Below are positions 32,401 through 35,400 of a stretch of 64,000 nt of DNA, one piece after another. Position numbers: made by a program. The stretch lies in NCBI RefSeq assembly GCF_055900595.2, contig NZ_CM148325.1; one strand, written 5' to 3'. Positions within the stretch are counted from its first letter, which is position 1. Each line of letters opens with the position of its first letter.

Positions 32401-35400
32401 GGTAATAAGGCGATGCCTAATCCCTGTCGAATAAAACTGATCGCTGTATCCGGGTGATTAAATTCATATTTTATCTGCTGGGTGCACTATTAGTGGTAGT
32501 GGCTGGTGGAGTCTATGCGCTGCAAATGAAGGGTAAAAGCGGTGTCGCGCTAGTAGTGGCAAAAGAAATTCATTAATACGACACGTTTCATTAAGATTTT
32601 TCGCAGGTAACCACCTATAGTCATTGTCGTTAATAAAAAATGACAGGCGATAGGGTATGGCAGTTTCAGCAAAGTACGACGAATTTAATCACTGGTGGGC
32701 AACAGAGGGCGACTGGGTTGAAGAGCCTAACTATCGCCGTAATGGGATGAGCGGGGTGCAATGCGTCGAGCGCAATGGCAAAAAGCTGTATGTGAAGCGC
32801 ATGACGCATCATCTGTTTCATTCCGTACGTTATCCGTTCGGTCGACCGACGATTGTCCGTGAGGTTGCGGTAATTAAAGAACTGGAACGGGCTGGTGTCA
32901 TTGTGCCGAAAATCGTTTTTGGTGAAGCGGTGAAAATTGAGGGTGAATGGCGCGCGTTGCTGGTGACGGAAGATATGGCGGGGTTCATAAGTATTGCTGA
33001 CTGGTATGCCCAGCATGCAGTAACACCTTATTCTGACGATGTTCGGCAAGCCATGTTGAAAGCTGTGGCGATGGCGTTTAAGAAAATGCATAGCGTTAAT
33101 CGTCAGCATGGCTGTTGTTACGTTCGCCACATCTATGTGAAAACAGAAGGTATGGTAGAAGCTGGTTTTCTTGATCTGGAGAAAAGTCGTCGCCGCTTAC
33201 GTCGGCATAAAGCGATTAATCATGATTTCCGCCAGCTGGAAAAATATCTGGAGCCGATCCCTAAAGCGGACTGGGAGCAGGTTAAAGCGTATTACTACGC
33301 CATGTAATCACGTAGGCCAGATAAGACGCGTAAGCGTCGCATCTGGCACAAGTACCCGATCACAACTCGATTTCAATATCGCCTTTTGCCCGGCAACAAC
33401 AGGGCAAAATTTCCCCCGGCTGAATAAAGGCTAACGGTTCGGCAATCCAGTCCACCTGGCCTGCAACAAGGCGTGTGCGACAGGAACCGCAGTAACCTTC
33501 GCGGCACTGGTACTCAACCGCCACATTGTGGGATTCCAGCGCCGCCAGAAGGGAAGGGTGTTCATCCTGGCACAGCAGTTGTGTGCCAGTGATGCGCAGG
33601 GTAACGCGAGCCATCAGAGCTGGAAGTTACTCAAATCGTCGGTGTCCACTTCCGAGTCAATCTGCCCGACCAGATAAGAACTGACTTCCACTTCCTGCGG
33701 AGCAACCTGTACGTTATCAGACACCAGCCAGGTGTTGATCCACGGGATCGGGTTGGAGCGTGTCTGGAACGGCAGATCCAAACCGACTGCCTGCATGCGG
33801 ATATTGGTGATGTATTCAACGTACTGGCAGAGAATGTCTTTATTCAGACCAATCATCGAACCGTCACGGAACAGATAATCCGCCCAGTCTTTCTCTTGCT
33901 GTGCCGCCTGGACGAACAGGTCATAGCACTCCTGCTTACATTCTTCGGCAATTTCCGCCATCTCCGGATCATCCGCGCCGCTGCGCAGCAGATTCAGCAT
34001 ATGCTGCGTACCGGTCAGGTGCAGGGCTTCATCGCGGGCAATCAGGCGAATAATCTTGGCGTTACCTTCCATCAGTTCGCGTTCTGCAAAGGCAAAGGAA
34101 CAAGCAAAGCTGACGTAGAAGCGGATCGCTTCCAGCGCGTTAACGCTCATCAGGCAGAGATACAGTTTTTTCTTCAGCTCGCGCAGGCTAACGGTTACGG
34201 TTTTACCGTTAACGGTGTGGGTGCCTTCGCCCAGCAGATGCCAGTAGCTGGTCATTTCGATCAGTTCATCGTAATAGCTGGAGATCCCTTCCGCACGTTT
34301 CTGGATCTGCTCGTTGGTGACGATATCGTCAAACACAACAGACGGATCGTTAACGATATTACGAATGATATGAGTATAGGAACGGGAATGAATTGTTTCT
34401 GAGAATGCCCAGGTTTCTACCCAGGTCTCCAGTTCCGGGATCGAGATCAGCGGCAGCAGTGCCACGTTCGGGCTGCGACCCTGAATGGAGTCCAGCAGCG
34501 TCTGATATTTCAGGTTGCTGATAAAGATGTGTTTTTCGTGTTCAGGCAGTGCCTGGTAATCGATACGGTCACGAGAAACGTCAACTTCTTCCGGACGCCA
34601 GAAGAAAGAGAGCTGCTTTTCGATCAGCTTTTCGAAGATGTCATATTTTTGCTGATCGTAGCGAGCCACGTTGACCGGCTGACCAAAGAACATCGGTTCT
34701 TTGAGCTGATCATTTTTCGTCTGTGAAAAGGTGGTATATGCCATGAATGTGTCCTGTTGGGAGTTTAATGCCGGATAAGGCATTTTACGCCGCATCCTGT
34801 GCCTGATGCGACGCTGGCGCGTCTTATCAGGCCTACAAAACCGAGCCGTAGGCCGGATAAGGCCTTCACGCCGCATCCGGCATCTCAATATCAGATCTTA
34901 CATGCGCCGCTTTCGCAGCCATCGTCCTGGATTGACGGCACCAGATCGTCTTGTGCGTCTTCAGCACCGTCACGGGTGTTCTGATAATACAGCGTTTTGA
35001 CCCCGAATTTGTAGGCGGTGAGCAGGTCTTTCAGCAGTTGCTGCATCGGCACTTTTCCTGACGGGAAACGTGACGGATCGTAGTTGGTGTTAGCAGAGAT
35101 GGACTGATCGATAAATTTCTGCATGATACCCACCAGTTGCAGGTAGCCATCGTTACCCGGCATTTCCCACAGCAGCTCATAGGCGTCGTGCAGATGCTCG
35201 TAGTCCGGCACCACCTGGCGCAGAATACCGTCTTTCGACGCTTTGATGCTGACGTAACCACGCGGCGGTTCAATACCGTTAGTGGCGTTAGAGATCTGCG
35301 AAGAAGTCTCTGACGGCATCAGAGCAGAAAGCGTGGAGTTACGCAGGCCGTGCGTTTTGATTGACTCACGCAGTGCTTCCCAGTCGTAATGCAGCGGCTC

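Follow-up and report, generated by a model that had tools for sequence, protein, structure and literature searches.

We find that the REPs at three intergenic sites in a 64,000-nt stretch of E. coli chromosome (the window), between inaA and yfaE, nrdA and nrdB, and yfaL and ubiG, are ordinary E. coli palindromic units of the Y and Z2 types with a BIME-2-class organization. Each of the three sites has its orthologue in the K-12 BIME-2 catalogue, and the nrdA-nrdB cluster, an already known element, is a shorter natural variant of the K-12 element that has been studied. A full explanation, in which these BIME-2 REPs would also act by the K-12-type stall and gyrase mechanism, is in our judgment probable, with the mechanistic part carried over by orthology. 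As discovery this has little weight: no repeat is more abundant in E. coli than the REP, the nrdA-nrdB cluster is a textbook example, and it already figures in the K-12 REP and BIME-2 catalogues, in the gyrase map and in the stop-proximal stalling model. What goes beyond K-12 knowledge is the spread of alleles in this gap among E. coli genomes, together with a hairpin after nrdA in Enterobacterales whose type varies by genus.

A prior sequence-only reading had placed REP units in these three ranges, and motif scanning, an Rfam model, nhmmer and folding found them in all three, with the proposed coordinates off by at most 1 nt and the flanking genes correctly named. That reading had also called all three junctions convergent, which holds for inaA/yfaE and yfaL/ubiG but not for nrdA/nrdB; these two genes lie in tandem on the minus strand. 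Its placement of the cluster inside an operon is right. The units and their landmarks are as follows.

33312-33348, minus strand: Z2-type REP (TGCCAGATGCGACGCTTACGCGTCTTATCTGGCCTAC), orthologue of K-12 REP165, aligned to K-12
34744-34742, minus strand: nrdB start codon ATG (nrdB, 33614-34744, 376 aa), preceded by the Shine-Dalgarno sequence AGGA at 34755-34752; both unpaired in predicted folds
34770-34797, minus strand: truncated Y-type REP lacking the TGCC head and CTAC tail, abutting the Z2 head via CA, its hairpin weak at -11.8 kcal/mol
34800-34836, plus strand: Z2-type REP in inverted orientation to the mRNA, folding at -21.9 kcal/mol (z -5.4)
34837-34847, minus strand: 11-nt linker, GGCTCGGTTTT in mRNA sense, that joins the Y and Z2 units tail to tail
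34848-34882, minus strand: Y-type REP, whose hairpin comes first in the nrdA-nrdB intergenic mRNA
34893-34891, minus strand: nrdA stop codon TGA, then the 8-nt spacer TATTGAGA (34890-34883) before the first REP
41658-41692, plus strand: Y-type REP, 21 nt past the yfaL stop (41634-41636), aligned to K-12
41703-41740, minus strand: Z2-type REP facing ubiG, forming one BIME-2 unit with the preceding Y unit
41750-41759, plus strand: REP-head fragment TTGCCGGATG within a 13-bp insertion absent from K-12

Several lines of evidence identify these units as REPs. A scan for the tail motif CTTATCMGGCCTAC, allowing up to two mismatches, gave six matches against 0.66 expected, a count reached by none of 100 shuffles, and five of the six are the REPs already proposed at the three sites. 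The Rfam model naRNA4 (RF02564), built from the unlinked locus REP325, matched all three sites with E-values of 2.4e-7 to 8e-3, all below its gathering threshold of 59.5 bits; it found no further family members between 30 and 44 kb of the window, and a scan of the whole window at gathering thresholds returned no match, the best naRNA4 score being 53.7. An nhmmer profile made from the five full units recovered the truncated sixth, which had been excluded from the profile, at E=3.6e-4. Apart from reverse-strand echoes of known units, at E<0.1 this profile found no further REPs anywhere in the 64 kb. We dismissed as chance two weak matches at 24507-24522 and 45526-45551 (E 0.3-1.8), the second of which lies past the gyrA terminator, within a region that looks coding.

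Folding agrees with the motif and profile searches. The five full units are 35-38 nt long and fold at -20 to -22 kcal/mol (z -3.3 to -5.4), the truncated unit is 28 nt long, and the three intergenic RNAs as wholes have z-scores of -4.5 to -5.7, in line with the earlier assignment. In the predicted folds, the lower stem of every unit is separated from the upper one by an internal loop or mismatch, and GGCCTAC, which contains the conserved GTAG/CTAC stem foot, terminates all five full units and is missing from the truncated one at 34770-34797. Every unit is extragenic, lying between annotated genes, and a query spanning the REPs has a median of 11 matching places per E. coli genome. At both nrdA/nrdB and yfaL/ubiG a Y unit is followed by an inverted Z2 unit, with tail-to-tail linkers of 11 and 10 nt, which is the BIME-2 layout. 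The Y and Z2 labels themselves rest on what we take to be the consensus sequences and on the listing of the K-12 orthologues as BIME-2. The Y and Z consensus sequences appear in PMC3333891 in a figure only; the same source gives the definitions of REP (an imperfect 30-40 nt palindrome able to fold as a hairpin), BIME-1 and BIME-2, and describes variability in copy number between strains.

The correspondence with K-12 extends to spacing. Three consecutive entries of the K-12 BIME-2 table, of 81, 202 and 35 bp, are separated by 6,766 and 1,419 bp (PMC6379681); the corresponding distances in the window are 6,776 and 1,422 bp. The middle entry, labelled nrdA>-nrdB>, lists gyrase sites (Cfx 2, RifCfx 3, Micro 0, Oxo 3) and carries the note 'Espeli, Boccard 1997: 2 cuts', and Topo-Seq identified this element as an in-vivo DNA gyrase cleavage site (PMC6379681). 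The K-12 REPs at nrdA/nrdB are named REP164a-e in the literature, and the yfaE/inaA REP is named REP165 in a bioRxiv supplement. The window cluster shares with REP164a-e its orthologous position, the 8-nt spacer, the Y, Z2 and truncated Y units, and the sequence up to the nrdB Shine-Dalgarno. It differs in having one Y-Z2 unit in a 146-bp gap, where K-12 has two units in 233 bp, in a linker of 11 nt rather than the 10 nt of K-12 and WCHEC96200, and in a C-to-G substitution within the upper Y stem, which weakens the hairpin from -21.3 kcal/mol in K-12 to -20.4.

The published work on K-12 suggests how the nrdA-nrdB cluster may act. According to a passage in PMC12306157, which cites Liang, Rudd & Deutscher 2015, a REP within 15 nt of a stop codon makes the terminating ribosome stall and reduces translation of the gene upstream; nrdAB is a named case there, for which ribosome stalling, cleavage of the mRNA and trans-translation acting on the upstream protein are reported. 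The window keeps this stop-proximal geometry of TGA, 8 nt and Y REP, with the spacer within the 15-nt distance. Because the hairpin begins 9 nt past the nrdA stop, a terminating ribosome would have to melt it. For K-12 nrdAB, published work reports that stalling at this point leads to mRNA cleavage and to less NrdA relative to NrdB, and by orthology the same would be expected here. The earlier proposal of an mRNA stabilizer or attenuator that shifts the NrdA:NrdB ratio is plausible and has the right direction, and it differs from the mechanism reported for the K-12 element. At the DNA level, where gyrase prefers the Y units of BIME-2 elements, the Y unit here would serve as a transcription-independent site of DNA gyrase binding and cleavage; the single full Y unit of the window predicts one gyrase cut, compared with two in K-12. 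This DNA-level role was absent from the sequence-only reading.

A possible but doubtful alternative is that the cluster is a dual 3'-UTR regulator like REP325 of the yjdMN operon, the naRNA4 source, shielding the nrdA segment from 3'-to-5' exonucleases and causing partial Rho-assisted termination before nrdB, which would raise the nrdA:nrdB mRNA ratio. Both loci are REP-pair clusters between co-transcribed genes, and the Rfam model built on REP325 matches the window REPs; REP325, however, has six repeats, with a demonstrated effect as stabilizer and partial Rho-dependent terminator (bioRxiv 10.64898/2026.03.23.713779), against 2.5 units in the window cluster. In the same study, tandem gene pairs with a REP show genome-wide a median log ratio of upstream to downstream RNA of 0.96 versus -0.09, but REP effects depend strongly on context and no general effect on half-life was seen. 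The nrdA-nrdB intergenic RNA is strongly structured, and about 18 of 79 other Enterobacterales (Kosakonia, Cedecea, Buttiauxella, Rahnella and other genera) have a terminator-like hairpin with a U-tract at this position, yet no U-tract lies behind the E. coli REPs of the window. The nrdB start, moreover, is only 24 nt past the last hairpin, so that Rho would have just a short untranslated stretch to load on, and the K-12 nrdA-nrdB gap has neither a listed Rho region nor a listed dominant Term-seq 3' end. The K-12 3'-end tables (Adams 2021), a list of only ~1,000 dominant 3' ends in which absence is weak evidence, hold no entry for nrdA, nrdB, yfaE, ubiG, yfaL or the three junction coordinates. 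The lack of a dominant 3' end argues against a strong barrier or attenuator and has no bearing on a translational stall.

The stall and gyrase reading must also be set against variation within the species. Among 5,426 complete E. coli genomes, about 20% carry the window-type nrdA-nrdB gap, about 37% the K-12 type (here an even 59-genome sample was used, since a junction-specific megablast, which joins repeated pieces, does not discriminate the two-unit allele), and 31% (1,684) have no REP in the gap, the last including at least one ST131 genome (EC958) and one O103 genome (RM8385). Such genomes show that the REP is dispensable here, and whatever effect it has may be small or open to replacement. 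The alleles of 145/146, 226, 233 and 241 bp are set apart by a single Y-Z2 unit or by a small duplication. A truncated Y unit is present in every Y/Z2-type allele (window, K-12, O157, BL21-type and WCHEC96200), and the Nissle-type allele carries different REP units. The 88-bp allele, which has no REP, bears a non-REP repeat, which we suspect belongs to the 'box C' family and which has no copy in the window. Published conclusions on the nrdAB REPs rest on the two-unit K-12 allele, although about one fifth of E. coli genomes have one unit; the alleles with zero, one and two units form a natural experiment on ribonucleotide reductase subunit balance.

This variety would also fit passenger DNA, that is, remnants of a selfish or mobilized repeat (via TnpA-REP, the REP-associated transposase) in a permissive gap and with no selected function here, a reading that we regard as unlikely. 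E. coli has at least six length or content alleles, counting the no-REP and Nissle types, the step in copy number is exactly one Y-Z2 unit, as TnpA-REP amplification models would have it (PMC3333891), and truncated units occur at 34770-34797 and 41750-41759. However, the spacer TATTGAGA is the same in all Y/Z2 alleles (window, K-12, O157, BL21-type and WCHEC96200; Nissle has TATTGTGA), gyrase cleavage has been measured at the K-12 element, and a stable hairpin lies within 15 nt of the nrdA stop in 61 of 69 hairpin-bearing Enterobacterales intergenic regions, despite turnover of the element.

Nearly all Enterobacterales have some hairpin right after nrdA, and the occupants seen include terminator-like hairpins, a G/C-tract palindromic repeat, species-specific REP pairs and the E. 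coli BIME-2. We speculate, while thinking it improbable, that the position past the nrdA stop is a selected 'hairpin slot' across Enterobacterales with turnover of its occupants, the E. coli alleles being dial settings for NrdA:NrdB output and local gyrase binding. If so, dNTP supply, and possibly mutation rate or hydroxyurea tolerance, could differ between lineages, for example between ST131 with no REP and K-12 with two units.

A role as source of a naRNA4-like nucleoid-associated RNA that condenses the chromosome with HU protein is already disfavored and highly improbable: the naRNA4 model matches the three sites, and the O157 allele exceeds the gathering score (63.4), but the window matches fall below it, the model in essence detects a generic REP pair, and REP325/naRNA4 itself shows no measurable nucleoid compaction and no REP-REP contacts (2026 bioRxiv study). 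We rejected an intrinsic terminator or attenuator, since no U-tract follows any REP: the units share with intrinsic terminators a GC-rich hairpin directly past a stop codon, but no hairpin with a U-tract was found at any of the three junctions, and none of seven E. coli nrdA-nrdB alleles passed a hairpin-plus-T-run test. A BIME-1/IHF reading was likewise rejected; inverted REP pairs are common to both classes, but BIME-1 combines Y and Z1 units with a long IHF-binding L linker, while the window has Z2 units of 37-38 nt and linkers of 10-11 nt, and PMC6379681 lists the K-12 orthologues as BIME-2 rather than as BIME-1.

The REPs at the two convergent junctions form 3'-UTR hairpins without a U-tract and would most likely hold back 3'-to-5' exonucleases rather than terminate transcription. 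The 52-bp inaA-yfaE gap holds a single REP, 4 nt from the inaA stop (33305-33307) and 11 nt from the yfaE stop (33360-33362), both within the 15-nt distance. What distinguishes this Z2 unit from the others is a lower stem with a compensatory T-A to A-T swap; it folds at -22.5 kcal/mol as plus-strand RNA and -28.0 as minus-strand RNA (z -5.2 and -5.7). In K-12, a Rho termination region at 2349082(+), antisense to inaA, shows read-through of this REP by the nrdAB-yfaE transcript. At yfaL/ubiG the REPs lie 21 nt from the yfaL stop and 35 nt from that of ubiG, both beyond the 15-nt distance; the Y-Z2 linker is 10 nt, and the intergenic RNA folds with z-scores of -5.0 and -5.5 on the two strands.

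The window is a stretch of E. coli chromosome in reversed K-12 orientation, as judged from its ORF layout and megablast. Reading the sequence, we identified six REP units at three sites: inaA/yfaE (site 1), nrdA-nrdB (site 2, 2.5 units), and yfaL/ubiG (site 3). All lie within 1 nt of the ranges proposed in the sequence-only reading, which had assigned the three clusters to convergent junctions; nrdA and nrdB are co-directional, and its placement of that cluster inside an operon stands. The Y and Z2 labels follow the consensus sequences and the filing of the K-12 orthologues as BIME-2.

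Genes and REP units in the window
32657-33307, +, inaA
33312-33348, -, site 1 Z2-type REP, 4 nt past the inaA stop and 11 nt from the yfaE stop
33360-33614, -, yfaE
33614-34744, -, nrdB
24 nt including an AGGA Shine-Dalgarno, from the truncated Y to the nrdB ATG (34744)
34797-34770, site 2 truncated Y, abutting Z2 via CA
34800-34836, site 2 inverted Z2, then CA
11-nt site 2 linker, between the Y unit and the inverted Z2
34882-34848, nrdAB mRNA strand, site 2 Y unit, first REP past the nrdA TGA
8-nt spacer TATTGAGA, nrdAB mRNA strand, between the nrdA TGA and the first REP
34891-37176, -, nrdA
37866-41636, +, yfaL
41658-41692, site 3 Y unit, then a 10-nt linker
41703-41740, site 3 inverted Z2, 3' of the linker
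41750-41759, site 3 REP-head fragment TTGCCGGATG, 10 nt
41776-41778, -, ubiG stop codon
42645-45272, +, gyrA

REPs are 30-40-nt imperfect palindromes that share a conserved GTAG and have a mismatch in the stem; BIME-1 elements combine Y and Z1 with a long IHF-binding linker, and BIME-2 elements are tandem copies of Y plus Z2 joined by short linkers (PMC3333891). In the window, the REP tail motif (up to 2 mismatches) matched six times against 0.66 expected, a count reached by none of 100 shuffles, and the REP units paired with each other form the longest inverted repeats of the entire window. A profile built for nhmmer on the five complete units independently picked up the truncated Y (E = 3.6e-4) and returned no further credible REP in the 64 kb. 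Rfam naRNA4, a model derived from the unlinked REP325 cluster, matched all three sites (E 2.4e-7 to 8e-3), with every score below gathering. The intergenic RNAs are predicted to fold far more stably than shuffles, with z-scores of -4.5 at nrdA-nrdB, -5.2 and -5.7 at site 1, and -5.0 and -5.5 at site 3. Judged at the sequence level, the window's elements qualify on every count as REP and BIME-2 elements. Within 41741-41775, an insertion of 13 bp that K-12 lacks (ATTCATCCGGCAA, ubiG-sense strand) contains the REP-head fragment, which resembles the remnant of a third unit, similar to the truncated Y of the nrdA-nrdB cluster.

These elements are already known from K-12, where they carry names and have been the subject of experiments. 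The K-12 nrdA-nrdB gap contains the same parts as the window, but with two Y-Z2 units in 233 bp; the five units tabulated beside nrdA as REP164a-e (PMC10100675) match that count of four full and one truncated, and the yfaE/inaA unit is named REP165 (bioRxiv supplement). A Topo-Seq study of the W3110 MuSGS genome lists three consecutive BIME-2 entries of 81, 202, and 35 bp (PMC6379681, sheet DS3), whose spacings of 6,766 and 1,419 bp match the 6,776 and 1,422 bp in the window. The middle entry, labelled 'nrdA>-nrdB>', records gyrase cleavage as Cfx 2, RifCfx 3, Micro 0, and Oxo 3, with the remark 'Espeli, Boccard 1997: 2 cuts'. In the same study, gyrase cleavage falls much more frequently in Y units than in Z2 units, and blocking transcription leaves the BIME-2 gyrase signal undiminished (PMC6379681).

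Work on the nrdAB REPs by Liang, Rudd and Deutscher (Mol Cell 2015), as summarised in PMC12306157, holds that a REP no more than 15 nt past a stop codon stalls the ribosome and lowers the upstream protein. The window has the same 8-nt spacer past the nrdA stop as K-12, and the Y hairpin stem begins 9 nt past the TGA (-20.4 kcal/mol, versus -21.3 in K-12). Because this stop-to-hairpin geometry is preserved exactly, the best-supported reading, by orthology with K-12, is that the first Y hairpin would act as a translational brake on NrdA and that the same cluster, on DNA, would serve as a gyrase site. Overexpressing an RNA helicase reportedly relieves the nrdAB effect, as does UV stress.

The sequence-only reading saw the nrdA-nrdB BIME as a possible mRNA stabiliser or attenuator, which is roughly right in spirit and overlooks the published translational stall and gyrase role. 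This proposal matches the REP325 model, where the clustered REPs that separate yjdM from yjdN stabilise upstream RNA and partly end transcription with Rho assistance, and tandem pairs with REPs show upstream-biased RNA genome-wide (bioRxiv 10.64898/2026.03.23.713779). We disfavour its strong version at nrdA-nrdB: a U-tract is absent after every REP, the gap has no entry in K-12 Term-seq and Rho tables, and only 24 nt separate the last hairpin from the nrdB translation start.

At the convergent junctions, no U-tract follows the REPs of inaA/yfaE or yfaL/ubiG. In K-12, Rho-dependent termination maps to a region at 2349082(+), within antisense inaA, which shows that nrdAB-yfaE transcription crosses the REP165 orthologue. 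Both points argue that these REPs are 3'-UTR hairpins rather than terminators, possibly serving as exonuclease barriers.

Comparison of representative genomes revealed at least six alleles of the nrdA-nrdB gap within E. coli. The window's closest relative, strain E200086, is 100% identical over a 451-bp megablast query taken around these REPs, and most other genomes are 96-98% identical.

Alleles of the nrdA-nrdB gap in an even sample of 59 E. coli chromosomes
145/146 bp (window type), Y / Z2 / truncated Y, 12/59
233 bp (K-12), two Y-Z2 units and a truncated Y, 22/59
226 bp (O157), second Y unit without its TGCC head, 3/59
241 bp (BL21 type), K-12 arrangement with an 8-bp duplication, 1/59
189 bp (Nissle), different Y-like units and 30-nt Z1-like units, 3/59
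88 bp, no REP, 18/59

The REP-less 88-bp allele occurs in 1,684 of 5,426 complete E. coli genomes (31%), including ST131 EC958 and O103 RM8385. Its gap (positions 246-333 of comparison sequence L006, E. coli ECSC054; also L011, L013, L021, L023, and L036) carries part of another dispersed palindromic repeat (median 7 copies per genome), which forms the hairpin CCCTCTCCC-CTTGC-GGGAGAGGG and contains CCCTCTCCCCTTGCGGGAGAGGGTTAGGGTGAGGGG; this family may be box C. Its counterparts between nrdA and nrdB in Pseudocitrobacter, Phytobacter, Cedecea, and one Enterobacter align with the 88-bp gap and are homologous to it, which may reflect either ancestral retention or recombination. BIME copy number differs among strains, and such variation in BIME-2 is already in the literature (PMC3333891), so this variability is not new in kind. 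There is a modest probability that natural allele variation tunes the balance of ribonucleotide reductase subunits like a dial.

Antisense to the nrdB start lies an 11-codon ORF (34743-34778, +) whose TAA falls inside the truncated Y; it corresponds to the RefSeq annotation yoaM (b4779) of K-12. Not all alleles conserve the peptide, since the same start codon in the 88-bp allele would enter quite different sequence.

Among nrdA-nrdB gaps from 79 Enterobacterales species genomes, a hairpin-free gap of 12-23 nt was limited to Photorhabdus, Xenorhabdus, Providencia, and one unclassified Enterobacteriaceae MAG. A stable hairpin was present in 69 of the 70 remaining gaps, and in 61 of these 69 it began no more than 15 nt past the nrdA stop. 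Occupants differ by genus: Citrobacter, Klebsiella, Pluralibacter, and Pseudescherichia have their own REP pairs, a G/C-tract repeat fills other gaps, and about 18 species (Kosakonia, Cedecea, Buttiauxella, and Rahnella among them) have terminator-like GC hairpins with U-tracts. As a lead, the pattern is compatible with two readings: selection for a hairpin in this slot, or a permissive site where palindromic repeats can land. In several Enterobacterales the intrinsic-terminator-like hairpin and U-tract sit inside the operon, 2-30 nt past the nrdA stop and ~20-30 nt before nrdB (upstream of position 1201 in comparison sequences L018, L022, L025, L027, L031, L032, L034, L037, L070, L071, L074, and L085), which suggests that, in those genera, expression of the two reductase subunits is separated by attenuation or by read-through coupled to translation.

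Elsewhere in the window, the glpQ-inaA interval (~30480-32650) holds more DNA than in K-12, where the yfaH pseudogene stands alone; it includes a 368-aa ORF (30699-31805, -), and the E200086 annotation of this region gives a frameshifted hypothetical protein and LysR-family fragments. The yfaL gene is intact (1,256 aa), whereas an IS3-family element interrupts it in E200086, and its interior (38277-38607) contains four copies of a ~99-bp periodic repeat, presumably passenger-domain units of the autotransporter. The 3' end of gyrA carries a classical hairpin and T-run (AAAAGGGAGTTATCTCCCTTTTTT, 45290-45313) ~18 nt past the stop, while its neighbours are flanked by REPs instead.
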